Part shown: positions 5,038 to 30,299 of the stretch, piece after piece
Layout of the letters: the number at the start of each line of letters is the position of its first letter
How positions within the stretch are numbered: position 1 is the first letter of the stretch
Source: a virus
Lineage: Duplodnaviria > Heunggongvirae > Uroviricota > Caudoviricetes
Length of the DNA stretch: 64,000 nucleotides
Virus record (IMG/VR): IMGVR_UViG_2660238580_000002
Strand: one strand, 5' to 3'
Notes under the pieces: model-generated
Seen by the model: the letters and a program-made list of their open reading frames with translations, nothing else
The model's database searches: none
What the model was told of the DNA's origin: nothing
Position numbers and translations under genes: made by a program

Positions 5038-8439
<3,402 letters not shown>

Positions 8440-16781: not shown

Positions 16782-17572
16782 TTACGCCAGTTGTACGGAC
16801 ACGAACGCATCAGGGTCAGCCAGCAGCATCAGCGGTGCTGACTGAATCATGGTGAACTCACGCGCCGGATCGCCGGTGGTCACCCAGTTTTTCGGGTAAC
16901 GGGCAGAGGCGTTAATGCCTTCGCGCTGTGCGTCCGCATCCTGAATGCAGCCATAGGTGCGCAGACCGCGTGCCTGAGTGTTCCCCAGCACCATCGTGTT
17001 GTCCGGCAGGAAGTTCTTTTTGACGCCGTTTTCCACGTACTGTCCGGAATACACGACGATGGCCACATCGCCATACATCCCCTTATAGGACACCGCTTTG
17101 CCCAGGTCTTTCACCGCTGTCTCCAGCTCGGAATTAGAGCCACGACGGGTATCCAGCTTCTCCTTGACGGCTTTGAAGGAACGGAACAGCGCCCAGCCTT
17201 TCGGATCGAACACGATGATATTCACCACACCGCTGGCGTTCAGCGCGTAGGCTTCGATATCGTCGGTCGGGTCATACGTGGACTTGTCACGCTTGCTCCA
17301 CTCCGTGCCGCCGGACTGCGTGATGTTATTCTCCTCACTGCGGCCCATATCCACCTCAACCGGATCGAAGGCTTCACCGGTCATGGTGTATTTGCCCTTA
17401 AGCACGGCAGAAACTGCCTGCATCTCTTCGACCTGAGCAATGGCCAGCTCTTCGTCACGCATGTTCTGCATGATGATGCGACGGCGGCGGTAAGCCGGGT
17501 CCGCCAGATTCTGCGGATCTTCATCCGGCAGGCGACGCAGGGTCATCTGCGGATTCACTTCATGCTTCGGCT
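16782..17572 (-). pseudogene. E: Major capsid protein E, 3' fragment (from ...PKHEVNPQ to C-terminus), cut off from its 5' part by the satellite
   Basis: Reading frame continues lambda gpE from codon ~80 onward; no start codon or N-terminus here. Confidence 0.9.
17563..17572. repeat. Left junction direct repeat TGCTTCGGCT (att core within gene E)
   Basis: Identical 10-mer at 30000-30009; E-derived sequence stops being contiguous after it. Confidence 0.8.
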
Positions 17573-17706
17573 ACATGAGTCAAATATGAAAGGATGTGAA
17601 TGATTTGATTACGTTTTAGCTATAGAATTGAAATGGAAAATCCTTGAATGCAATACAACGTGCAATACATGGATGAAAACCATCACTCATTTAACAAGAG
17701 GAATCT

Positions 17707-18612
17707 ATGCGCTCACCCAACAGAATGCATGAACGCTCAACATTTTATAAGTATATGTCGTTGAATACCGCGAAGATTGTTCTTGATTCATGCAGCCTTA
17801 GATGGAGTTCTCCGGTCCTATTTAATGACCCTTTTGATGTTCCAAGAGAAGTTATGCCTGGTATTAACGAAATTAATATTGGCAAAGCTTTAGCCCGCAA
17901 GTTAATAGCGGAGTTGATTACCCCCAGAGAAGACATACAAAATTTAAACCCTAGAATTAGAACAATGCTAAGTGATTTCCAAAAGTCATTTCCTTTAGGC
18001 ATACCCGCAGGATTAATTGAAAGATTTCAAGAAATGGTAAACATTCCACCAGTTGGGATTGGCGCTCCTGCGGCAATACAAGAAATGAAAGATGTCTGGC
18101 GAGGAATGCTTAATAACAGAAGGATTTTGTGTTTATCTGAGAGCCCTATAATCACTCCTATGTGGAATCACTATGCCGATAAATATAAAGGTATAGTTAT
18201 CGAATTTGATTGTGTAGACTTTCTGGATAGCGCTTGGTTAATAGCCAAACCTATGAAATACACAGATAAAATGCCTCTAACTCACACTGCTGAAGGGATG
18301 GCCGAGTTGCTTTTCATGCCAGACAATAAGTCAATTGAATATATCAATAATGAGATAATATTCATAAAAACAGAAGAATGGGCATATGAAAGAGAGTGGA
18401 GAATTTCAACCTACGCTAGGCCAAATAGCACTGGTCAATATAGCGACTTAAAATTTCACCCTTTTGAGTTAAAATCTGTAATACTTGGTCCTCTTTTTGA
18501 TGCCAGCGAGTTCGATGAAGTCGCATCACTAGTTAAGATGTATCCAAGAGCGAAATTATTTAAAAGTTCATTTGGGAACGACAGAAAAATATCCATAGTA
18601 CCACTACCTTAA
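17707..18612 (+). CDS. DUF2971-like protein (uncharacterised satellite cargo)
   Basis: 301-aa ORF with motifs FYKYMS...LFNDPFD, YKGIVIEFD, EEWAYEREWR recalled as DUF2971 hallmarks; only plus-strand gene at this satellite end. Confidence 0.5.
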   Translation: MRSPNRMHERSTFYKYMSLNTAKIVLDSCSLRWSSPVLFNDPFDVPREVMPGINEINIGKALARKLIAELITPREDIQNLNPRIRTMLSDFQKSFPLGIPAGLIERFQEMVNIPPVGIGAPAAIQEMKDVWRGMLNNRRILCLSESPIITPMWNHYADKYKGIVIEFDCVDFLDSAWLIAKPMKYTDKMPLTHTAEGMAELLFMPDNKSIEYINNEIIFIKTEEWAYEREWRISTYARPNSTGQYSDLKFHPFELKSVILGPLFDASEFDEVASLVKMYPRAKLFKSSFGNDRKISIVPLP

Positions 18613-18718
18613 AAGGTCAAATGCTTTTGACAAATAAAATCTATCGCCAGTTTTACTGGCGACTTTTAAGCAACAAAGAACCACCTAAGCACTCTTCCTA
18701 CCTATGGTTTCATTTGTT

Positions 18719-19270
18719 TTAACTTCGCTGATTATCCTTGATATACCTTTCAGCCATATCTGGAATGTTATCTGAGATCTGGTAAGCTCGAATAAATGCT
18801 TTACTGACCTCCATCTTAATGAAGTCCTGATACCGTTTTTCCATGCCAGGAAACTGTCGACAGATCGCAAGTGGAAGACTATCAATGATTGCTCCAACTT
18901 CCCCAGTTAATTTCGACAAGGCATAAGTCGCAAATGCAGTGTCAATTACCTCACCTGTTTCGCTGGCATTCTTCAGTTCCTGTGCGTCGGCCTGCGCACG
19001 CGTAAGTCGATGGCGTTCGTACTCAATAGTCCCTGGCTGGAGATCTGCCTCGCTGGCCTGGCGCAGTTCTTCAACCTCCCGGCGCAGCTTTTCGTTCTCA
19101 ATTTCAGCATCCCTTTCGGCATACCATTTTATGACGGCGGCAGAGTCATAAAGCACCTCATTACCCTTGTCACCGCCTCGCAGAACGGGCATTCCCTGCT
19201 CCTGCTAGTTCTGAATGGTACGGATACTCGCACCGAAAATGTCAGCCAGCTGCTTTTTGTTGGCTTCCAT
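18719..19270 (-). pseudogene. Terminase small subunit Nu1 homologue with in-frame amber codon at codon 22
   Basis: ATG at 19270 reads MEANKKQLADIFGASIRTIQN then TAG (19205-19207) where helper Nu1 has TGG; ORF resumes at Met28. Confidence 0.8.
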
Positions 19271-19515
19271 TGTTCATTCCACGGACAAAACCAGAGAAAG
19301 GAAACGACAGAGGCCAAAAAGCCTGTTTTTAGCACCTGTCGTTTCCTTTCTTTTTAGGGGATGTTTTTAATAAAAACATTAAGTTACGGCGAAGAAGAAC
19401 GGAAACGCCTTAAACAGGAAAATTTTCACAAATAGCGAAAACCCGCGCGCCTGACGCCCCGTAGCCTGTCAGATCGCCGGAAAGGACCCGCCAGCCAGAG
19501 CGGGCCCTAATTTCA
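19271..19515 (-). promoter_or_regulatory. Satellite cos region (cosB-like conserved, cosN-equivalent divergent)
   Basis: Closely similar by eye to helper cos at 36190-36420, but the 12-mer at 19447-19458 differs from helper cosN at several positions. Confidence 0.6.
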
Positions 19516-19899
19516 TCAACCAATCAGCTTATAGCGACCATCCCGTGCATTGCGGCGTACACGCTCAATCTTGAGGCATAGCGCCGCATCTGGCTTTTTT
19601 GGGACAGGTACGCGGCAATATTCAGAAGCGCGAGGAATATTATTTATCCAGTCGATCACTTCACTTAAATACCAGGCCTTACGCCCTTCCGTAACCTGCA
19701 CACGCTCCGGGAACTCTCCACTAGCCTCAAGGTTTAGCAGTGTACGCCGACTCAGGGTTGTAATTTCCATCACCTGATTCATATCAACAAGGCGCTCGCT
19801 TAAACACATTTTGTCAGCGATAGCTTTTAATTCCTCTACAGCTGGATTCGGGTACATCATTTCGGCAATTGGCTTAAGGTCATTGTAATCATTCTGCAT
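19516..19899 (-). CDS. AlpA/excisionase-like HTH protein
   Basis: 127-aa ORF; C-terminal segment resembles AlpA-family HTH; lies next to satellite cos. Confidence 0.45.
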   Translation of the reverse strand: MQNDYNDLKPIAEMMYPNPAVEELKAIADKMCLSERLVDMNQVMEITTLSRRTLLNLEASGEFPERVQVTEGRKAWYLSEVIDWINNIPRASEYCRVPVPKKPDAALCLKIERVRRNARDGRYKLIG

Positions 19900-19910
19900 T
19901 GTATCCCCCT

Positions 19911-20252
19911 TTACACACGAGCCAGCGGCTGAACAGAAATACCTGAGCCAACAAACGCTGCAATCTTTACTGACAGTTCTTTTACAGACTCAGGCCAGTT
20001 CAGAGCATCAACATTTAAGACACCTGTCTTATAGACCTGAGCCCGTGTTTTTTTCGCGGTGTCGATTTGTACAGCGGAAACATAAACCGCTTTACCTACG
20101 CTCGAACCATCCCATACCACCAGTGCACCTGTTGCATCTTCCTGCATCAGTGGCGTAAATGCAGGAATTACCCCTTTATTAGCTGAAAATATCCCCAGCG
20201 TAGTCACCAGTGCTTCAGTGCCAGCCATGAGTTCAGTGTAATGAGTAGCCAT
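19911..20252 (-). CDS. Head decoration protein, gpD-like (satellite-encoded)
   Basis: 113 aa; aligns by eye with lambda gpD (PLM...WDG... core). Confidence 0.65.
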   Translation of the reverse strand: MATHYTELMAGTEALVTTLGIFSANKGVIPAFTPLMQEDATGALVVWDGSSVGKAVYVSAVQIDTAKKTRAQVYKTGVLNVDALNWPESVKELSVKIAAFVGSGISVQPLARV

Positions 20253-20261
20253 TGCTCCCCC

Positions 20262-21302
20262 TTAGCCAATGCGAACGGTAACAAAACGATTGATGCGGGC
20301 CGGTATTGGCTGTGGTGCTGAATGTGTCTGCACATATTCAATAGCCGGATCACCAGGTACAATATAGTTTTTCGGTGCAAGTTCGGCTTTAGTCAGCCCC
20401 ATTCGGATTAGCTCCGGATCCTGAATACCGCCATAGGCGACAATCCCCTGAAGAGCCGTATTGCCAAGCACCATCAAATCAGGATCAAGGAAATGTTTTT
20501 CTGTTCCGTCCTCGTCGGTATAACGCCCGCTGTAAACAACAATCGCAACATCGCCCATATACCCTTTAAAACTCACCGAATCACCAAGGTCTTTAAGGGC
20601 CGTTTCCAGTTCGGAATTAGAACCACGACGGGTATCCAAAGCCTCTTTTATCGCTCTGAATGAACGGTATTTCTTCCATACATTACCACCCATAATGATG
20701 ATATTAGTGACGCCCTCACTAAATTCTGCGTAGCTCTCAATATCATCATTTGGATCAAAAGTTTCTTTATCCTTACTTGACCACTCAGTACCGCCAGACT
20801 GAGTGATGATATTTTGTGGTTTTATATTCCAGTCCAGCTCATAACGTTCAATACCATCGCCCTCAATGATATTTTTCCCCGTTGTGATTGCCTGAACAGC
20901 AAGCCATTCAATACGTGCACGAATAGCTTTAGCTTGATTTACAATCGCCTGTTTAACTTTAATATTACGCGCCCCAAAAGCATTGTATTGCTCAGGTGAT
21001 ACACCAGCAGGGCGCACAGCTAACTTATTTGGATCAATGCTGCTTTTCGGCTTCATATAGCCTGGACGAATTGTTTTTGATTCGTACCCTTCGTCACGTG
21101 AAACTTTACTACCCACCATAGGAGAACAAAACGCTGCAATTGGGATATTTGGATCGTCGATTGTATCAAGAATAATATCGCGCGATTCAAACATTACCGA
21201 GCGAGTAAAAAACAAACTGGTAAACAACGCATTTAGTTGTTTTTGTACATCTACAGCATTAACCACCTGTACAAGCTGGGTAGGCGAATATAAATCAACC
21301 AT
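20262..21302 (-). CDS. Major capsid protein, gpE-like (satellite-encoded, divergent)
   Basis: ~347 aa from Met with AGAGGA RBS; C-terminal half close to lambda gpE (ITQSGGTEWS...DTRRGSNSELETA...), N-terminal half divergent. Confidence 0.75.
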   Translation of the reverse strand: MVDLYSPTQLVQVVNAVDVQKQLNALFTSLFFTRSVMFESRDIILDTIDDPNIPIAAFCSPMVGSKVSRDEGYESKTIRPGYMKPKSSIDPNKLAVRPAGVSPEQYNAFGARNIKVKQAIVNQAKAIRARIEWLAVQAITTGKNIIEGDGIERYELDWNIKPQNIITQSGGTEWSSKDKETFDPNDDIESYAEFSEGVTNIIIMGGNVWKKYRSFRAIKEALDTRRGSNSELETALKDLGDSVSFKGYMGDVAIVVYSGRYTDEDGTEKHFLDPDLMVLGNTALQGIVAYGGIQDPELIRMGLTKAELAPKNYIVPGDPAIEYVQTHSAPQPIPARINRFVTVRIG

Positions 21303-21587
21303 ACACATCCTCTTTGCATTCATTAAAAATAATTGTGGATATATGCTATCACCAATATTTGTCATGCGAATACATGCAACCGAGTGCAATGTTGTATAAA
21401 GTTTTGGGATGACAACTTCAGCGCGGATAATTAGTGTTAATATATTCACTCCCTTTGGTCGGGATTTATGTAGCATGCCGGAAAATTTATTTTTTCCGGC
21501 CTTTTTTATTGGCAATATTTAAAACGGAATATCATCTCCCCATTGCTCATTATCTCCCACTGGTGGATGGCTTCCTTGCTGATCTGC

Positions 21588-21968
21588 CTATTGTTTTGCT
21601 CTGTTCAGTGCGTCAGTAGCCTGACCCTGTTGACCTTTTTTGCCGCCCGGTCGCACCGTTCGCGCACTGATTACGCTGTCTGCGATAACCTGCCAGCCCT
21701 GCCGCGTTTCACCGTTCTGTCCAGTCCACTGGCTCACCTGCATGTTACCCGCCACGCTCAGGAGTTCGCCTTTGTGATGCTTTGCCAGCGCATCGGCTTG
21801 TCTGCCAAACGCCAGCACAGATAACCACATCGTCGCCGTTCCGTCATCTGCCTGGCTGCATGGCAAAGATACCGCCATCCGTGCCAGTGTCATGGGTGTT
21901 CCCTTGCTGGTATGTTTTACCTGTGGGTCGTCCACCAGCCGCCCGTAAGCTGCTATTTGCGCCGTCAT
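21588..21968 (-). CDS. SSB-like OB-fold protein
   Basis: 126-aa ORF with SSB-like pattern (W..VLAFGRQA..L.KG..L.V.G); weak. Confidence 0.4.
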   Translation of the reverse strand: MTAQIAAYGRLVDDPQVKHTSKGTPMTLARMAVSLPCSQADDGTATMWLSVLAFGRQADALAKHHKGELLSVAGNMQVSQWTGQNGETRQGWQVIADSVISARTVRPGGKKGQQGQATDALNRAKQ

Positions 21969-21979
21969 GCTGCCTGCTC

Positions 21980-22222
21980 TCAGGACTTAATATTGATGGT
22001 TGTCACTTCCTCCGCTTCGGCAATCTCCCGTTCGGTCAGCGTGGCAAAGTTTGCAGCCGCCGTTGTCATGAATGCGCTTATCAGTTCGGGATGTGCTTTC
22101 GCGTATCCTTCCCCGGCGTTGCGGTCTATTGCCTTAATCGCCACCCTTAGCCAGTGTTCAGCCATATCAAGGGCGCGGTAATGTGGCTTTATATGTTTGT
22201 TCAGTTTTCCTGATGTGTGCAT
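21980..22222 (-). CDS. Hypothetical protein
   Basis: 80-aa ORF between ori and SSB-like gene. Confidence 0.4.
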   Translation of the reverse strand: MHTSGKLNKHIKPHYRALDMAEHWLRVAIKAIDRNAGEGYAKAHPELISAFMTTAAANFATLTEREIAEAEEVTTINIKS

Positions 22223-22259
22223 TTTTATTTTTACCCCCTCGTTTAAAAAGTTTTTTGTG

Positions 22260-22500
22260 CACCACCACCTTGTCTACCTTGTCTACCTGATTAGTTATCA
22301 GGCCAGTAATGGCGCGGGTTTCAGAGAGGTAGACAGCCCCAAATAGCTGTCTACCTCATCTCTACCCGTCTCCTTACCTGTCTACAAAAATGGGTAGATA
22401 AGGTAGATAACAGGTAGACAGTGAAAAATAGTTATCTACCTGCATTAATACATTGAAATAAAAGTATTTTATTTCAGTCAGGTAGACAAGGTAGATAACC
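22260..22500. repeat. Satellite replication origin: ~12 iterons (GGTAGA[C/T]A core, both orientations) around an AT-rich tract
   Basis: Repeated gtctacc/ggtagac motifs directly upstream of pri-rep. Confidence 0.8.
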
Positions 22501-22511
22501 ATTGCCATTTT

Positions 22512-24263
22512 TTATAAAAACGCATCGCAATCATCAGTAGTCGTTGCGTTGGTCTGAGTGACTCCCTTAACTTTTCGCGTAATATATTCATATCCGTAAA
22601 CTTTCGCCGCTGACCTCATAGCCTTTCCGAACTCATTCACGCTCAAACATTTCCCCTTTCCTGTATATGCCATGAAGGCCATATAGACACGGTAAAGGCT
22701 GTTTCTGGTCGTGTACTTCACGGTGTCACCACCACCGCCCATCATTAGCCCACGAGCTTCCTCCAGAAACTCCAGCGCCGCGCAAAGCTCAACAACCGGA
22801 TCCGTTTGCTGCTTTATTGCCAGAGCTTCATCACCGTCACGCTGTTCCAGTAATAAAGCCCGTGCCTTTTCAGGGTCAGCAAAATTAGCCAGCAAGCGGC
22901 GGATAATTACGGGGATTTCTGCCGCTATCTTTTCCGGTAATTCCTTGTCTTTTTCGTCCTCCCTTACAATGTTGTCGAACCGGAAAATCACCCGACGGCG
23001 TGACACACCTCCGGCCCGTTCGGTAAAGATCATCGGGTCGTTATTGGTTGCCAGTACCACCGCCCTTATTATCGTCGTGAATCGCTTCTCATATTTCGGG
23101 TTAATTTCAACGGGATCGCCTCCCGTGATTTTCTTGATGCCCGTGCCTTCCCCCGTATATTTCGGCTGATCGGCAAGGACGATAAGACGACTCCCGACAA
23201 CCTGCGCGCGCCCTCCTGCATCATCGAGTGATGTCATCTCTGCGCTTACGGTGTTCTGTTTGCCAGCAAGCAGGGTGGCAATATGAGTAAATGTGCTCTT
23301 TCCGCTTCCCCCGTCTCCGGTGGCCTCAATGAACATCTGCCAGTCGTAGCGGTTCGCCATAATCATGTATAACGCGGCACATATACGCATCATCTTGCGC
23401 GGGTCTTTTCCTGCAGCATGTTCAAGCCATTTATGGAAATTTGGCGCATTATCGCGGATGTTTTCCCCTGCTACTGGTGGCGTGTACTCAATACCATTGT
23501 GCGTGGTGCTCCAGTGCTCCGGCGAGTGCGGAGAAAATTCCCCCGTTTTCAGATTAAGCACACCATTAGTGAACGGTAGCAAATCACCGGACGGCTCCCC
23601 CATGGGGGCGGCAATAACTTTTAACGCTTCCACGGCGTTATTGATTACGCGCTTGCTGAACGTGGCCCTGTGCTCTGAATAGATCGCCACCATTTCGCGG
23701 CTCAGCTCCATTGTGCTGACCGGACACCATACCCCGCCGCGCCATACGTGGACGATTTCACTTTCTGCATGAACACAAACACCATCAAAGCGATCGGCAA
23801 GTAGTTGTGCCCGCTCACTGTCTGCCATCTGTGAAAGTTGCGCCTTTTGCTTCGTCGGAAGATTAAGCACCAGGCTTTCCCCACGCTCGCATTCCTCTTT
23901 GAGTCGCGGCAACTGGTCGGATAAATCCACTGGGCTGGTGTCAGTAATCCCCGCGTATTCGTGTACGGTCTTCACTCCAGCCACAGCCAGTAACGTAACA
24001 ATCTGCGTCATGCTGTGCTCTGTGATATGTCCTGCGCGGTAAACACGCACACACTGACGATCTTCATCAATGATCCGGTAATCGGTGATGTTTTTCAGTT
24101 GCTCATCAGCCAACACGACAGGCGGCACATCGTCGGCGGCAATATGTTTACCCGCCCATTCCTGCCACTCTTTCGCATGGCTCCACGCATCACTACCTGC
24201 AAAGATGATTACCTCTGTCAGTCTGTCGCGTGGCTGTTTTTTTAAGTTCGGTGCCAGTTTCAT
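22512..24263 (-). CDS. Primase/helicase replication protein (Pri-Rep, P4-primase family)
   Basis: 583-aa ORF with P-loop GDGGSGKST and helicase-like C-terminus; adjacent iteron ori. Confidence 0.8.
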   Translation of the reverse strand: MKLAPNLKKQPRDRLTEVIIFAGSDAWSHAKEWQEWAGKHIAADDVPPVVLADEQLKNITDYRIIDEDRQCVRVYRAGHITEHSMTQIVTLLAVAGVKTVHEYAGITDTSPVDLSDQLPRLKEECERGESLVLNLPTKQKAQLSQMADSERAQLLADRFDGVCVHAESEIVHVWRGGVWCPVSTMELSREMVAIYSEHRATFSKRVINNAVEALKVIAAPMGEPSGDLLPFTNGVLNLKTGEFSPHSPEHWSTTHNGIEYTPPVAGENIRDNAPNFHKWLEHAAGKDPRKMMRICAALYMIMANRYDWQMFIEATGDGGSGKSTFTHIATLLAGKQNTVSAEMTSLDDAGGRAQVVGSRLIVLADQPKYTGEGTGIKKITGGDPVEINPKYEKRFTTIIRAVVLATNNDPMIFTERAGGVSRRRVIFRFDNIVREDEKDKELPEKIAAEIPVIIRRLLANFADPEKARALLLEQRDGDEALAIKQQTDPVVELCAALEFLEEARGLMMGGGGDTVKYTTRNSLYRVYMAFMAYTGKGKCLSVNEFGKAMRSAAKVYGYEYITRKVKGVTQTNATTTDDCDAFL

Positions 24264-24559
24264 TTTTTGCCCCTGAATGCGTTAATCATGCTTTTCATTT
24301 TCTGGATGTTTCCCCGCGCTTTTTCCCTGCTGATGGGCTTACTGCGGGGTGCGGCATATACCAGGGAAAAATCACGCCGGAACTGATAAACAGGCATCAC
24401 GCAGTCATAGCTATACCCCTCACGACGGTAAGTGATGCGCCGTTCTGCCACGCCTTTAATCGTTACCGTGCCGCCGTATTTATCGCGGTAAATATCGCCG
24501 TTCATAAATTCAGGCCGAGCGGGGCCGCTGGCAATAAAGCCAGAATTTTTCATTTCCAT
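24260..24559 (-). CDS. Hypothetical satellite protein
   Basis: 99-aa ORF, stop overlaps pri-rep start. Confidence 0.5.
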   Translation of the reverse strand: MEMKNSGFIASGPARPEFMNGDIYRDKYGGTVTIKGVAERRITYRREGYSYDCVMPVYQFRRDFSLVYAAPRSKPISREKARGNIQKMKSMINAFRGKK

Positions 24560-24576
24560 ATTATTTATTCCTCGAC

Positions 24577-24798
24577 TTAACTCGACTTATTTGATAGCAG
24601 GGCACTATTTATTGCGTCATTGAGTTTTTCTGCTGCTTCATCAATAAGTGACAACAGGCCATAAGCAATATTTGCATCTTCATTGTCATTTATGCAATCA
24701 AGCCACATATTTAATATTGCTTTTGCTGAATTATTTAAAGTTAATGAACTTTCTGCACATGCTAACAATTTAAAAAAGACTTCCCGTTCTGTATTCAT
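24577..24798 (-). CDS. Hypothetical satellite protein
   Basis: 73-aa ORF in minus-strand operon. Confidence 0.4.
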   Translation of the reverse strand: MNTEREVFFKLLACAESSLTLNNSAKAILNMWLDCINDNEDANIAYGLLSLIDEAAEKLNDAINSALLSNKSS

Positions 24799-24990
24799 TT
24801 AATCCCCCACCAGCTTACTTTCTTCCTCAATCAAAAAACTAGCGACACTTCCCGAAAGACGCGCCAGTAGGCTCGCCAGTGCGGATATATCAGCATCTGT
24901 AATTTTGTTCGGGTATACCTCAAGAAGGCGGCAAATAATTTCTGTCTGGTGCGCACGTTCAGCGGCTTCGTGTAATGTGATTTCCTGCAT
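24799..24990 (-). CDS. Hypothetical satellite protein
   Basis: 63-aa ORF in minus-strand operon. Confidence 0.4.
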   Translation of the reverse strand: MQEITLHEAAERAHQTEIICRLLEVYPNKITDADISALASLLARLSGSVASFLIEEESKLVGD

Positions 24991-25182
24991 TAATGCACCT
25001 CTTTTAATTCATACACTGCTGAAATAATGACTTGTGATAAGCCATATTCTGATGATTCGCTTCTCACCGCAGCAATAGCCGTCTGAACATTAACAGCCTT
25101 CACGTTCTGAGCGATACCAATTGTGTGGCCTAGTGGGTTAACCGCACGAGCAAATACACGGAAGGTTTTAAGCACGGCATAC
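24990..25182 (-). pseudogene. Satellite ORF body separated from its start by IS629
   Basis: Frame is open across the IS629 target site but has no ATG downstream of the insertion; the track ORF borrows IS sequence for its N-terminus. Confidence 0.4.
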
Positions 25183-25224
25183 TGAACCGCCCCGGGTTTC
25201 CTGGAGAGTGTTTTATCTGTGAAC

Positions 25225-26115
25225 TCAGGCTGCCAGATCATCGTTTCCGATGGAAGCATAATAAGCTTTTTCTGCTTCTGCCGGAGGAGTATGGCCCAGC
25301 CTTTCCAGCAATCGTCGATTGTTATACCAGTCCACCCACGTGAGTGTGGCCAGTTCCACTTCTGCACGGTTTTTCCAGCTCTTACGGTGTATTACCTCCG
25401 CTTTGTAAAGACCATTGATGCTCTCCGCCATCGCGTTGTCATACGAGTCGCCTGTACTTCCTGTTGATGCCAGTAATCCGGCTTCCTTAAGCCGCTGTGT
25501 GTAGGCCAGCGATACATACTGAGAACCTTTATCACTGTGATGGACCGTGCCGGACGGTCGACGGGCCCATAACGCCTGCTCCAGTGCATCCAGCACGAAT
25601 GTCGTTTCCATGGACGATGAGACCCGCCACCCCACGATGTATCCGGCAAACACATCAATGATGAACGCCACATAGACGAAGCCCCGCCATGTGCTGACGT
25701 AAGTAAAATCAGCCACCCACAGCTGGTCAGGTCGTTCTGCCACGAACTGACGGTTTACGCGGTCGCCTGCGGCAACGGCTTTCCGGCTGATGGTCGTACG
25801 GACCTTTTTACCCCGGAGAACACCGGCAAGTCCCATAACCGCCATGAGACGTGCCACAGTGCATCTGGCCACTCTGATACCTTCCCGTAACAACTGACGC
25901 CAGACTTTACGCACACCGTATACCTTGTGATTTTCATCGTATACGCGCTGTATCTCTTTCTTCAGCCAGTCATCGCGCTGCGCACGGGCACTGCGTTTAT
26001 CCGGATGATGTCGCTGTTGCTGACAGTGGTAATACGTTGACGGGGCAATATGCAGTTCGCTGCATAGCGGTCCGACCCCGTACTGCTCACGCAGCTTATC
26101 CAGCAGTGGCATCAT
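25225..26115 (-). CDS. IS629 transposase OrfB (DDE, made as OrfAB by frameshift)
   Basis: 296-aa [21 protein letters not shown]... Confidence 0.9.
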
Positions 26116-26438
26116 TTTTTCCAGAGGCGGTCGAACTCCGCCTTCGCAAAATAAGCGGAAGCCTGGCGAAGGATATCGTTACTGCGGCGCAGTTCACGAT
26201 TTTCACGTTCCAGCTCTTTCAGACGCTGACGTTCAGCGGTGGTGAGCCCTCCATCACCGCCCCCGGTATCCCGCTCATGCTGGCGAACCCAGACACGCAG
26301 AGTCTCCGGCGTACAGCCAATCTTTGGAGCAATGGAACAAATTGTCGCCCATTGTGAGTCATATTCGCTCTGACTTTCCAGAACCATACGGACTGCCCGT
26401 TGACGGACTTCGGGGGAAAAACGAGTATTTTTAGTCAT
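26112..26438 (-). CDS. IS629 OrfA
   Basis: 108-aa [22 protein letters not shown]... Confidence 0.9.
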
Positions 26439-26492
26439 CCTGTTTACCTCTTTCTCAGGAAGTTTAGTCTCCAGGATTCCCGGGGCGGTTCA

Positions 26493-26684
26493 TACCTCCT
26501 GACGAATACGGGCGGCAAATATCATCACGCAGCCAGTTGGGGATTGTTGGCGGGCTTCCTGTTCGCTGGCGGCCTCGATGTGTATTACGCGTGGTTGTGC
26601 GGTGCTCAGGGCGATAAAACGCCAGATGTATTTATTCAGGTTGTGCGGGTCCCGCCCTTGCGGGTGTGTGGTATGATTTCTCAT
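26493..26684 (-). CDS. Small satellite protein, last 3 codons replaced by IS629 end
   Basis: 64-aa ORF; stop codon supplied by the IS terminus. Confidence 0.45.
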
Positions 26685-26779
26685 AGCTATCTCGATACTG
26701 TTGCTATCGTTGGTGGTTAGAAGCCCGTTGGTGTTCCTAGCGCCTTCGGGCTTTGCTTTTTTAAGTGCCTCCGTGTTAA

Positions 26780-26823
26780 GGTGGTCACCTAACAGTAAAA
26801 AGGCTAATTCAATAGGTGGTCAC
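26780..26823 (+). promoter_or_regulatory. Two GGTGGTCAC direct repeats (operator-like) in the divergent promoter region
   Basis: Identical 9-mers at 26780-26788 and 26815-26823, 35 bp apart, upstream of the RHH gene. Confidence 0.35.
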
Positions 26824-27015
26824 TTGTCAACAATCAAACGCGATAAAAGTCCTAAGGGTGATGGGCAATCTCCACAATTCAGAATGCGAATTTCTCCAGA
26901 GCTAAAAGAGCAATTCGACAAAGAAGCGCAGAGCGACGGCATAAGCCTAGCCAACTGGCTTAAAGAATTAGGGCGCAAAGAGCTGCTACGGCGCGGTATT
27001 GAACCAAAAGGATAA
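26824..27015 (+). CDS. Ribbon-helix-helix (Arc/MetJ-like) DNA-binding protein, candidate satellite repressor
   Basis: RHH-like FRMRISPELKEQFDKEA...LANWLKELG; possible TTG start after AGGTGG (ATG alternative at 26884); divergent from leftward operon. Confidence 0.45.
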   Translation: MSTIKRDKSPKGDGQSPQFRMRISPELKEQFDKEAQSDGISLANWLKELGRKELLRRGIEPKG

Positions 27016-27042
27016 GAGTAATTGAAGTCAAGGAGCTAACAC

Positions 27043-27399
27043 ATGAAATACGAATTCTTCGCAACAAGTAGCAGTAGTTTGGATGTATACATAGTCACTG
27101 TATCAAACGATTCTAGCTCGCTAATCATGACTTGCAATTGTCCAGCAGGAAGTAAAGGTATTCTATGTAGACACCGTAAAGCTTTAATTACCGGAAAAAT
27201 CCGTGGTATATTCACTCCCCCAAGAAGGAATAATCCCGAAAAGTTACAAGAAGCTATAAATTTAATAACCACATATGGCATAGATAAAACATTAAAGTTG
27301 TACACTGATGAGTTAGAACGAGCAGAACAGACTTGGATAAGTGTTCGCGATAATTTGAGAGCAATGATAAACGCTCTTGTTGAACCACCTAAATATTGA
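27043..27399 (+). CDS. SWIM-zinc-finger-like small protein
   Basis: 118-aa ORF with CNCPAGSKGILCRH (CxCxnCxH). Confidence 0.4.
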   Translation: MKYEFFATSSSSLDVYIVTVSNDSSSLIMTCNCPAGSKGILCRHRKALITGKIRGIFTPPRRNNPEKLQEAINLITTYGIDKTLKLYTDELERAEQTWISVRDNLRAMINALVEPPKY

Positions 27400-27530
27400 A
27401 CTGTTCACATTGCCTATCAGTCGACAACCTCGTATTCTGATTAAGGCTAACTATATACTCACATTGGCGACCAATTCTGGTCGCCTTTATCCACCATTTT
27501 TATAACATCATAGATTAAAAGTGTTAATCC

Positions 27531-28361
27531 TTACCCCCTGAATGGAATTGATGAGGATTTAATTTCCACTGAACTAAATCCTTTTGAATCCAAGAACATT
27601 TTTATACCAGCCTCAATGAAATCATAATCGTTTGTCGGGCCAATAGTAATACTTTTAATTGGTAACTTCCTATGATCTTTATTACCAATGATGATATAAG
27701 GGATGACACCATTATTATTTATTCTGAATTGCACATCTGGTATTAGTATGCGCGGAGTAAATACCAATCTAAATTCATTTTCTTCGATAAAACTAGGATG
27801 TTTAAAAAATGGGATGTATTTAGATATAAATTGATACGTAGAGGCCATTGTTACAAAATGATCATTCTTTTCTTTAATATTAATACCATTACAAGAAAAA
27901 AACGCCCCCAACTCCTTACTCATCTTAGTAACATCGTTATTATTTGAATATATAACATCATGTGCAACACAATTTAAATAAATATTTTGAGAAAAGCTCA
28001 CAAGTTCATCCGCATCAAACTCAATGCAAACACCCTGTTTATTTCCGTAACCTCTCCACTGACTTAACTTATCGTTTTCCTTACAAAAAGAGATGCTATA
28101 AACATGTTTATCAATCCCTTTTTCTTTTTGTAACCTCCCTTTCTCATACATGTCAAGAGACTTGAGCAAAATAGTTTTCTTATCTTTTGGAATGATATTG
28201 TCATCAACTATTTTAATTGTATTTCGAAAGCATTCACATCCATGGTTAGACTCCTCTTTATCATTTAAGAAATATATGTTTGTAGCCCATAAAGAATTAG
28301 AGTCTAATATACCTTTCAAACCAAAAAGATCTGTATAATGAAATATAGCCACAATGCCCAC
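27531..28361 (-). CDS. DUF2971-like protein (second copy; cargo downstream of alpA)
   Basis: 276-aa ORF with FHYTDL...LWATNIYFLNDKEE, SQWRGYG..GVCIEFD, FIEENEFRL motifs. Confidence 0.5.
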   Translation of the reverse strand: MGIVAIFHYTDLFGLKGILDSNSLWATNIYFLNDKEESNHGCECFRNTIKIVDDNIIPKDKKTILLKSLDMYEKGRLQKEKGIDKHVYSISFCKENDKLSQWRGYGNKQGVCIEFDADELVSFSQNIYLNCVAHDVIYSNNNDVTKMSKELGAFFSCNGINIKEKNDHFVTMASTYQFISKYIPFFKHPSFIEENEFRLVFTPRILIPDVQFRINNNGVIPYIIIGNKDHRKLPIKSITIGPTNDYDFIEAGIKMFLDSKGFSSVEIKSSSIPFRG

Positions 28362-28368
28362 CTAATAG

Positions 28369-28599
28369 TTAAGTTGTTTCCCACTCACCTCGAATCCATG
28401 CCTGCACTTCTGAAAGACGATATGCAACAGCAGTGGAACCAATCTTGATCCGCTTAGGAAATTTTCCTTCCTTCTCCAGCTTCCAGCGTGTGCTGTTCGC
28501 AAGAGTGGTTAGCTCCCGACATTCTTTCTCACGGATCATTCGGTCAATGTTAGGAATGTACTCCAGACCCTTTTTATCAACAATTGCCATTTTTTTCAT
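28369..28599 (-). CDS. alpA: AlpA-family transcriptional regulator
   Basis: 76-aa ORF directly downstream of int, AlpA-like HTH. Confidence 0.75.
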   Translation of the reverse strand: MKKMAIVDKKGLEYIPNIDRMIREKECRELTTLANSTRWKLEKEGKFPKRIKIGSTAVAYRLSEVQAWIRGEWETT

Positions 28600-28600
28600 G

Positions 28601-29836
28601 TTAACCAGCCTTTTGTTTGAGGATTGTCACTTTTGAATCAGCACCTGCGATGCTATTGAGATATGTAGTCCAGAGTTCCAGAGCATCCAGTTTTTTAGCC
28701 ATAAACTTACTCCGGTTGTAAACACCTGCCACGCCAGGTAGCGCATGGCCTAACAGTTGTTCTACTACATAAAATTCAACACCGAGATCACTTAGATGAG
28801 TAGATAGCGTTCTTCTAAGGTCGTGTAGTGACCATTGTTTTTCATGGCCCAAACGTTTACCGATTTTCCCCCCAATCTTGCTTACGCTTTCTCTAATTCG
28901 CAGACTTCCCAGCACATAACCAGTATGTTTTGTCTCTTCGTGAACATCCGTTACCCACTGTCGTAGAATTTCAGGTACTGGTCTGACGATTTCAACACCG
29001 GTTTTTGAGTGTTCTTTTGGTACAGTCCAAACCCAACTTTCTAGATCCCATTCGCTCCATTCTGATAATCGGGCTTCACTCATTCGACATCCAAATACTG
29101 TACAAAGCACAAACATTTTTCGCGTGTATTCAGACATTAGTTTTAAATCAGGCTCGACAAAAATTGCCTTCCAGAGCTGGCCCAGTTCGGCTTCATCCAG
29201 AACCCGATCCCGCTTACCTGCAATCTGCCCCACATCACTCATGCGCAAATCCTTTAAAGCATCACACGTCGCGTACTGGCGTACCCGACAAAAACGAAGA
29301 GCTAATTTAGTGTCAGAAAAAACATACGCCGCCATAACTGGTGCATTACGTTTAATTCGGTCAAAACAGTCCAGCCATTCATATAGGTGAGTGTCATTTA
29401 CGGGCAAATGACCGATATAGGGAAAGATATGCTTTCGAAATCTGCCAAGCGTTACAGCATGAGTTTTACGACGCACCTTACAGTAATTTTCATACCAGTA
29501 ATTTAGTGCATCCTCCACTGTGACCGGCTTTAAGCGTTCTTCAGCCTGAATCTTAATCTGGATACGCGGATCACGTTTGTCAGCCAACCAACCACGGCAC
29601 TCGTCGCGCTTTTCTCTTGCCTGTTTGAGTGACATATCAGGATATTTACCCAACGTTAGCCAGACCGGAGCAGCCCGGCCACCTGCTAACCTGTAGAAGA
29701 AAACAAAGCTCACAGCCCCCTTAGTACTCACACGAATAGAAAGCCCCTTTCCATCAGCAATGGTGATCTGCTTTTCTCTGGGTTTCCCCAGATATCCTTT
29801 AAGCGCTTTGTCGCTCAGTTTGTTCTCGCCAGCCAT
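28601..29836 (-). CDS. int: Tyrosine integrase (P4-type)
   Basis: 411 aa from MAGENKLSDKALKGY; catalytic HDLRRT...LGH...Y region; adjacent to right att repeat. Confidence 0.9.
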   Translation of the reverse strand: MAGENKLSDKALKGYLGKPREKQITIADGKGLSIRVSTKGAVSFVFFYRLAGGRAAPVWLTLGKYPDMSLKQAREKRDECRGWLADKRDPRIQIKIQAEERLKPVTVEDALNYWYENYCKVRRKTHAVTLGRFRKHIFPYIGHLPVNDTHLYEWLDCFDRIKRNAPVMAAYVFSDTKLALRFCRVRQYATCDALKDLRMSDVGQIAGKRDRVLDEAELGQLWKAIFVEPDLKLMSEYTRKMFVLCTVFGCRMSEARLSEWSEWDLESWVWTVPKEHSKTGVEIVRPVPEILRQWVTDVHEETKHTGYVLGSLRIRESVSKIGGKIGKRLGHEKQWSLHDLRRTLSTHLSDLGVEFYVVEQLLGHALPGVAGVYNRSKFMAKKLDALELWTTYLNSIAGADSKVTILKQKAG

Positions 29837-29968
29837 TTTTAGCCCCAAAAAGCAATACAAGCTGCAATACAGAGATGATTGCAACACACAGATAACGAGG
29901 AAAATCCAGTGAAAGCGCCAGATAATCTTATTCTTTATTATCAAAGAATTAAGTGTAAAAACCAGCAA

Positions 29969-30244
29969 CTACACGAAAGCCTCAGAAAGCCATGCTAAGT
30001 GCTTCGGCTTGACATATCCCGGCGTAAATTCAGAGGTGGAGCCGCCACGGGAACGGATAACCTCACCGGAAACAATCGGCGAAACGTACAGCGCCATGTT
30101 TACCAGTCCCGGAATTTGTGAGAGATAGACTTTCTCCGTGGTGAAGGGATAGCTCTCACGGAAAAAGAGACACAGAAACAGCGGATCAAACTTAAATTTC
30201 TGCTCATTTGCCGCCAGCAGTTGGGCGGTTGTGTACATCGACAT
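29969..30244 (-). pseudogene. E: Major capsid protein E, 5' fragment (codons 1-82 fused to 9 satellite codons and a stop)
   Basis: MSMYTTAQLLAANEQKFKFDPLF...GYVKPKH then LAWLSEAFV*. Confidence 0.9.
30000..30009. repeat. Right junction direct repeat TGCTTCGGCT (att core within gene E)
   Basis: Identical to 17563-17572; E sequence resumes immediately after. Confidence 0.8.
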
Positions 30245-30299
30245 AAAAAAATCCCGTAAAAAAAGCCGCACAGGCGGCCTTTAGTGATGAAGGGTAAAG

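Follow-up and report, generated by a model that had tools for sequence, protein, structure and literature searches.

What does a single gene that runs against all of its neighbours do at the end of a phage satellite? The question is raised by an open reading frame (ORF) of 301 amino acids (17707–18612, + strand, ATG start) in a 64,000-nucleotide stretch of viral DNA (Caudoviricetes; IMG/VR record IMGVR_UViG_2660238580_000002), the whole of which we refer to as the window. An earlier note, made from the letters of the window, had likened the ORF to the family DUF2971 and proposed an undescribed accessory or defence gene of unknown mechanism in the variable end of a PICI- or P4-like satellite. 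Based on the family, the predicted fold and the genomic position described below, we think that the product is probably a stand-alone defence protein of the Aristaios/PDC-S31 type, carried as swappable cargo in the 3′ immune hotspot of a helper-embedded phage-inducible chromosomal island (PICI).

The ORF reads as the earlier note had described it, with every quoted motif in place (FYKYMS at residues 13–18, FNDPFD at 39–44, YKGIVIEFD at 160–168 and EEWAYEREWR at 223–232), and it is the sole + strand gene at this end of the satellite. It encodes a protein of 34.7 kDa with a pI of 6.9 and a predicted ADP-ribosyltransferase (ART) fold. A database search returned 479 homologues at E ≤ 1e-3, nearly all of them about 300 residues long and aligned over 98–100% of the query. 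Comparison with an 88%-identical Enterobacter orthologue gave a ratio of nonsynonymous to synonymous substitution (dN/dS) of 0.061/0.427, or about 0.14, and a 62%-identical orthologue also gave a value of about 0.14. Judged by these ratios the ORF is under purifying selection and, since the low dN/dS comes together with the 479 full-length homologues and a match to Pfam DUF2971, it is far from a chance reading frame. The RefSeq/PGAP model of the gene (WP_237709600.1) is shorter, with 252 residues and a start at Met50 (17854–18612), and loses the first β-strand together with K15, N40 and D41, residues that are invariant or nearly so in the family. We rejected this model as too short, and the 301-residue start is almost certainly right, because homologues align from residue 1, because these conserved positions lie in the additional N-terminus and because a Shine–Dalgarno sequence, AAGAGGA (17696–17702), is separated by 4 nt from the ATG at 17707.

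The ORF is flanked by 134 bp and 106 bp. Its cargo-specific upstream region (17605–17706, + strand) carries, besides the Shine–Dalgarno sequence, a weak promoter-like site read by eye, with ATGATT (17600–17605) and TAGAAT (17623–17628) separated by 17 nt, and the gene may have a weak promoter of its own. Downstream, a terminator scan called a GC-rich hairpin on the − strand (18643–18663; 9-bp stem with five GC pairs, T/A runs on both sides), and CTTTT follows the stem on the + strand; the DUF2971 and Nu1-like genes converge on this hairpin, which probably terminates transcription in both directions. With a GC content of 37.7%, the gene lies below both the element (45.3%) and the structural genes of the prophage (about 57%), and such a low value is typical of imported cargo.

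The family named in the earlier note proved right on profile search. Pfam DUF2971 (PF11185) matches residues 152–233 over its whole length (profile positions 1–89 of 89) with E = 1e-9 and 40 bits against a gathering cutoff of 22, and all of the 114 diverse relatives that we compared also match it. The protein is further matched by the PADLOC candidate system PDC-S31, through model PDLC04990 at residues 9–289 (E = 2e-32) and through models PDLC04994, 04991, 04992 and 04993; PDC-S31 is a single-gene system, recognised by hidden Markov model (HMM) matches with no required partner, and the literature that we searched has nothing on it. PHROGs places the protein in phrog_1762, annotated as function unknown, at E = 1e-68. 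The words “undescribed” and “unknown mechanism” in the earlier note have been overtaken, both by this PADLOC candidate and by published work on the family. Aristaios, a 316-residue DUF2971 protein encoded on the Lactococcus plasmid pUCCL641_199, has been validated by experiment as a system of one gene (Grafakou et al. 2024, PMC11381338). It acts once the DNA has been injected, its phenotype is abortive infection and its AlphaFold model resembles an ART (PMC11381338); it is reported to block phage transcription and hence the production of structural proteins (PMC13064643, PMC12967558). Moreover, a survey of ART families classes DUF2971 as an ART of the DarT/AbiGi/Tox-ART-HYD1-like kind, with a poorly conserved motif-I His, a strict motif-II Tyr, an ExE motif III and large helical inserts, and predicts about 18% of DUF2971 proteins, including Legionella lpg1268, to be effectors (PMC12522546). 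A profile search of 1.84 billion cluster representatives collected 20,274 family members at E ≤ 1e-3, which puts the family at about 20,000 clusters counted at 50% identity, and the full-length architecture is common to 648 clusters at E ≤ 1e-30.

The structure prediction suggested in the earlier note gave a confident AlphaFold2 model (58-sequence alignment, pLDDT 94.5, pTM 0.86), in which the split β-sheet core fold of ARTs is present. The order of its elements, that is β1 at residues 12–17, a helix, β2 at 30–34, a four-helix insert at 55–137, a β-strand at 138–144, a helix at 150–156, a β-strand at 163–168, a second helical insert at about 176–228 and a β-strand at 230–236, agrees with the published description of DUF2971 (PMC12522546), and we predict an ART core with large helical inserts. 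The catalytic motifs of ARTs were sought as His or Arg on β1 (motif I), Tyr or S-T-S (motif II) and Glu or ExE before β5 (motif III). Among the 114 representatives, which are 22–38% identical to the query, K15, D41, W153, Y156, K221, E230, R232 and G261 are invariant, and Y16, R32-W33-S34, N40, D44 and E228 are at least 90% conserved; Y156 fits motif II and E228-x-E230 fits motif III. In the predicted pocket the conserved residues would be K15-Y16, where motif I usually has His, with W153/Y156 for motif II and E228-x-E230-W-R232 for motif III. A second DUF2971 gene of the same satellite (27531–28361, − strand) has a His-type motif I, FHYT, and its His aligns with K15 at a local score of 40, as compared with 20.8 ± 4.0 for shuffled sequences, of which 4 of 2000 reach that score; motifs II and III, the core, of the two proteins align by hhalign.

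Wider comparisons were made at the level of both structure and sequence. Foldseek against the PDB returned nothing significant, with DarT recurring among the weak matches (E = 0.2–1.1), and against viral structures (BFVD) nothing at E ≤ 0.001; when PDB sequences were searched with a profile of the family alignment, only chance helical matches came up. No match to DarT was found in Pfam or PADLOC, even at permissive E-values, and permissive Pfam scans of the ORF and its 114 relatives revealed no sub-threshold link to the DarT, AbiGi or Tox-ART families, a weak Tox-ART-HYD1 match (E = 0.05) being confined to the His-type paralogue. Since the Lys-type clade is without an HMMER-level bridge to ART families, its assignment rests on the fold and on the published profile work.

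Where, then, does the gene sit? By its sequence, the carrier is a helper-embedded PICI in capsid gene E of a Qin-site lambdoid prophage (site E:Phage_cap_E:80). A P4-like carrier, the other type that the earlier note had named, was rejected on the PICI-type int/alpA/pri genes, the lambda-type cohesive-end site (cos) and the match to the helper-embedded PICI class (PMC10111431). The satellite spans 17573–30009, about 12.4 kb or about 11.1 kb without an insertion sequence (IS), and splits gene E at about codon 80. Positions 17000–17572 are 100% identical to lambda 6370–6942 (gene E) and the identity ends exactly at 17572, which bears out the left attachment (att) repeat claimed for this place: the att core TGCTTCGGCT occupies 17563–17572 at the cargo end, in gene E codons ~79–82 (KPKH), and recurs at 30000–30009, where it adjoins the integrase end and the N-terminal gene E fragment (ORF 29969–30271). 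The type element of this class, 11capE, integrates at E:Phage_cap_E:80 via a 10-bp identity block (PMC10111431); in the window the same site and a 10-bp identity block are found together with an int/alpA/pri set co-oriented with the late genes. The neighbours of the ORF are all on the − strand. On the left these are truncated capsid gene E (16782–17558; its match to Pfam Phage_cap_E starts at profile position 94), FI and the tail genes; on the right come a Nu1-like terS and genes for an AlpA-type regulator, a lambda D-like decoration protein, a second capsid protein of the E type, an SSB-like protein and a D5/primase. The gene is cos-proximal, as had been claimed, but it is not directly beside cos, from which it is separated by the probable terS pseudogene (18719–19270, − strand).

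Comparison with sister elements bears out the view of the gene as accessory cargo at a variable end of the satellite. The att arm at the satellite end (17573–17604) is common by blastn to sisters with other cargo: similarity reaches 17604 in one (L004) and 17583 in another (L002), both then diverge, and similarity resumes at about 19233 or 19419. From this gap it follows that the swapped module consists of the DUF2971 gene together with the terS allele. In a survey of the slot in ten relatives, other cargo, on the same strand as the DUF2971 gene and thus opposite to the neighbours, was found in those inserted at exactly this site of gene E, namely an AbiJ-like gene (PADLOC AbiJ, E = 2e-21) or, alternatively, an NsnA/PD-T4-2_A-like DUF262 protein with a HEPN protein, and these genes mark the slot as a defence hotspot. 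The 3′ slot is empty in 6 of the 10 relatives, five at chromosomal sites and one elsewhere in a lambdoid prophage head region, and among the relatives sampled it is filled only in gene-E-embedded copies. The integrase-proximal (5′) slot of relatives holds a DUF2971 gene, a TIR protein (PDC-S35, E = 7e-67) or a BRO-N protein. In the window it is this slot that holds the second DUF2971 gene (Pfam PF11185, E = 1e-11). The two DUF2971 genes are 21% identical over 167 residues, on which ground we rejected a recent duplication, and both end slots of one satellite hold divergent members of the family. Both ends of PICIs, 5′ and 3′, are known as sites of immune systems (Fillol-Salom 2022, as cited in PMC11364771), and cos-proximal hotspots are described for P4 elements (Rousset 2022, PMC9122126). 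The slot considered here has the features of a PICI 3′-end immune hotspot, lying between the packaging module and att, being variable and holding defence genes. DUF2971 as satellite-hotspot cargo was not mentioned in the literature that we searched.

Backbones near-identical to that of the satellite were also seen with different integrases and at different sites (L003 from E. coli CFSAN018748, L005 and L018–L021), the latter including the head-gene region of another lambdoid prophage, by a short portal gene, and chromosomal clpS, phoQ, smrA and yejO. On this comparison, the satellite backbone is one that moves between embedded and chromosomal lifestyles.

Beyond its close sisters, the gene has homologues in a variety of mobile contexts. 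An 88%-identical orthologue occupies the same slot in a related satellite of Enterobacter sichuanensis. Homologues of 47–62% identity are found outside satellites, with packaging genes not nearby, in thrW islands, a prophage moron region and a HipA islet. Among the contexts sampled are the proBA/thrW integration hotspot, where homologues stand beside integrase fragments and HEPN_AbiV, YjhX and CbtA genes, a Pantoea prophage, beside SIR2_2 and HD genes, a P2-like Ogr region and an islet beside HipA, while one further context is ambiguous. Together with the plasmids, 510 of which bear distant homologues (at most 30% identity) by tblastn, these surroundings show that the family is not confined to housekeeping contexts. 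No neighbour gene is conserved across the 8 homologue contexts sampled, which suggests that the DUF2971 gene works alone. In phage genomes tblastn returned 12 weak partial matches only, and the gene is therefore not a typical phage gene. Weak DUF2971-like matches were also noted on the Vibrio cyclitrophicus elements PE003/PE004, which were deposited as phages and are satellite-sized (13.6–14.8 kb); this hints that DUF2971 cargo is also carried by marine satellites.

Several of our observations weigh against a defence protein of the Aristaios/PDC-S31 type. The link to Aristaios is the shared Pfam family only, and among the 40 listed of the 510 plasmid tblastn matches there was no Lactococcus record. 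The canonical His/Arg of motif I is replaced across the clade by the invariant K15, so that NAD+ chemistry is not guaranteed; catalytic competence after the His-to-Lys change is plausible but unproven. The upstream region of its own that the earlier note had given the gene exists, as 134 bp, but a promoter scan found no consensus sigma-70 promoter in it and it offers at best a weak site. In the flanks of 134 bp and 106 bp we found no macrodomain, no antitoxin or immunity gene and no small partner ORF; a toxic ART without such a companion gene would be unusual. Finally, the gene is rare, being present in 33 of 5,426 complete E. coli genomes, always on the chromosome and in copies at least 99.6% identical.

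Considering the validated family member and the company of defence genes, we still regard a stand-alone defence protein as the probable identity of the product, and we infer its anti-phage phenotype, NAD+ dependence, target and trigger as follows. The gene would be expressed in the lysogen from its own weak promoter, and the protein would stay inactive until an infecting phage triggers its activity. With NAD+ as its substrate it would then ADP-ribosylate a target on which phage gene expression depends, phage transcription would stop and the infection would abort, with the clone and the satellite–prophage composite being protected. The similarity of the fold to DarT, Tpt1 and Scabin makes a nucleic acid the most likely target, an alternative being a component of the transcription or translation machinery; the transcription block reported for Aristaios is compatible with modification of the template or transcript and equally with modification of RNA polymerase. 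In the model, auto-inhibition or sensing might be the task of the two helical inserts.

The remaining parts of the satellite include several that show signs of wear. An E. coli LST200A copy is 100% identical over the 2.4-kb query (17000–19400) in an element of about 11 kb, and the RefSeq gene order there is int, helix-turn-helix (HTH) gene, second DUF2971 gene, SWIM, icd-like, DUF4222, primase, SSB, capsid, decoration, AlpA, terS and the DUF2971 gene at the cargo end. The Nu1-like terS (Pfam Phage_Nu1, E = 4e-64) carries an in-frame TAG at codon 22 (19205–19207), a position that is Trp in lambda, and RefSeq flags an internal stop in the gene; because of this amber codon the gene is probably a pseudogene. 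It is also a chimera: its N-terminal DNA-binding part, with cos, is 92–94% identical to nohA/cos of the resident prophage, and its C-terminal part is similar to the PICI-type TerS found in an Enterobacter element. The lambda-type cos of the satellite (approximately 19380–19470), whose reverse complement matches the lambda left end (CGCGGGTTTTCGCTATTT...), lies between the Nu1-like and AlpA genes, and a 531-bp block that includes it (18960–19490) is 93.6% identical to the cos/nohA region of the resident prophage. The SSB-like gene (21588–21968, − strand) encodes 126 residues, as against 149 in a sister, has lost its acidic C-terminal tail and is flagged by RefSeq as having an internal stop. Near the icd-like gene lies a 1.3-kb IS of the IS3 family (25183–26490) with two overlapping transposase ORFs; an ALIL frameshift pseudoknot inside it (26041–26157) is the only Rfam match across the whole element, and the IS is not in the LST200A copy, which is otherwise 99.98% identical. 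The terS amber codon, the truncated SSB and the IS suggest that the satellite copy is decaying, with both DUF2971 genes intact; that the gene at the cargo end has been spared adds to the signs of functional constraint on it. The primase gene is closely followed, on its downstream side, by two copies of GGTAGA(T/C)AAGGTAGATAAC, 88 bp apart (22393–22411 and 22481–22499), which probably serve as iterons of the origin from which the satellite replicates. A small gene for a SWIM zinc-finger protein (27043–27399, + strand), conserved in sister elements and located between the second DUF2971 gene and the icd-like region, has a weak match to PADLOC PDC-S62 (E = 3e-5).

Other functions can be proposed for such a protein at such a site. 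The same fold might do another job, that of a Tpt1-like RNA 2′-phosphotransferase, a nucleic-acid-end modifier or repair enzyme, a pseudo-ART that has lost catalysis and acts by binding, or a counter-defence factor. The Tpt1 tetrad is Arg-His-Arg-Arg, and it is not evident among the conserved residues of our protein, in which the E-x-E motif of ADP-ribosylating toxins is invariant or nearly so. Since, moreover, the validated family member is an abortive-infection (Abi) system (PMC11381338) and the genomic company of the family is one of defence and toxin genes, we find these other jobs rather unlikely. A weapon between elements is more doubtful still. Such a protein would interfere with the helper, for example by modifying its DNA, terminase or capsid proteins, and would bias packaging toward the satellite instead of conferring general immunity to unrelated phages. 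This would suit a gene that adjoins the packaging module and is swapped with a Nu1-like terS allele in the E. coli and the Enterobacter element, in a satellite physically embedded in its helper, and PICIs are known to interfere with helpers (PMC10111431). The 47–62%-identical homologues away from satellites and packaging genes, and the more distant ones on plasmids, are difficult to reconcile with such a role, as are the generic AbiJ-like and PD-T4-2-like defence genes that fill the same slot in sisters. In addition, the AlpA-D-E module of the satellite occurs in 394 of the 5,426 complete E. coli genomes, as compared with 33 for the DUF2971 gene, and most members of the satellite family are without it.

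The gene could also be an addiction toxin that stabilises the satellite–prophage composite and has no role in phage defence. The toxin-type fold is related to the toxin-antitoxin (TA) toxin DarT, homologues in islands stand beside the TA toxins YjhX, CbtA and HipA, and the gene is kept while the satellite decays. An addiction module, however, calls for an antitoxin, and neither the flanks of the ORF nor a neighbour conserved across contexts offers a candidate; a stable lone toxin could not serve as such a module. On these grounds we rejected the gene as one half of a TA pair and regard addiction as quite improbable. Least probable of all, to the point of being very hard to credit, is a secreted effector or virulence factor of the ART type, a role that has been proposed for a minority of the DUF2971 proteins in Legionella. 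The effectors predicted within the family, lpg1268 among them (PMC12522546), speak for it; the protein, on the other hand, has a neutral pI and no N-terminal hydrophobic signal, its gene lies in a satellite defence hotspot, and the E. coli strains that carry it are a mixed set of human, bird, frog and water isolates.

Returning to the stand-alone defence protein, its orientation allows a further suggestion. All of the 3′-slot cargo genes are antisense to the helper late operon, which reads through the satellite on the − strand, and Q-antiterminated late read-through could silence the DUF2971 gene during helper induction. If so, the defence gene would be off exactly when helper and satellite replicate, and self-targeting would be avoided. 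A bolder generalisation, in which the whole Lys-type clade (the 648 clusters) would be antitoxin-free nucleic-acid ARTs, autoinhibited by their inserts until a phage cue and then shutting off phage transcription, with antisense self-silencing added in helper-embedded PICIs, we consider speculative and, taken as a whole, unlikely.

Much of this picture is already published: the family has a validated member, a PADLOC candidate and an ART prediction, and neither the type of carrier nor the idea of the hotspot is new. Our additions are modest, namely an enterobacterial, satellite-borne, Lys-type member with confirmation of its fold, and the presence of two defence slots in helper-embedded PICIs. 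DUF2971 is thereby added to the known cargo of PICI end hotspots, and no new kind of system is revealed. For a family of some 20,000 clusters, with homologues on 510 plasmids and one validated anti-phage member, an E. coli representative in a delimited cargo module, on a satellite embedded in a lambda-like prophage and in the species whose genetics is best equipped for phage work, is a tractable entry point. It makes testable whether these proteins are true ADP-ribosyltransferases, what their substrate is, how they are harmless without an antitoxin and what triggers them.

Compared with known systems, the gene is most readily set beside Aristaios, with which it shares a single-gene layout of about 300 residues (301 vs. 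316), Pfam DUF2971, a predicted ART fold, a mobile element as carrier and the absence of a partner gene. It likewise resembles PDC-S31, with five model matches, that to PDLC04990 (E = 2e-32) being nearly full length; PDC-S31 is a computational candidate and gives neither a phenotype nor a mechanism. Its resemblance to DarT is structural only. The DarG macrodomain antitoxin and HMM-level similarity are absent here, Lys stands in place of the motif-I His, helical inserts occupy residues 55–137 and about 176–228 and there is an extra C-terminal β region; furthermore, the process that DarT blocks is DNA replication, while for Aristaios a block of transcription is reported. Unlike in Tpt1/KptA, an N-terminal RNA-binding lobe and the catalytic tetrad are not recognised, the genomic context is another one and the identity is 14%. 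As for the carrier, it agrees with 11capE (PMC10111431) in its insertion at gene E codon ~80 through a 10-bp identity block, in its orientation with the helper late genes and in its set of int, AlpA-type HTH, primase, terS and its own homologues of capsid E and decoration D. Cargo and defence genes were outside the analysis of 11capE (PMC10111431), whereas here there are two DUF2971 genes, along with a chimeric amber terS, a truncated SSB and an IS. Like the 5′ and 3′ hotspots of PICIs and the cos-proximal hotspots of P4, the ends of this satellite are variable and defence-rich, with cargo swapped between near-identical elements; unlike those hotspots, they belong to a satellite nested in a prophage, in which the 3′ cargo runs antisense to helper late transcription.

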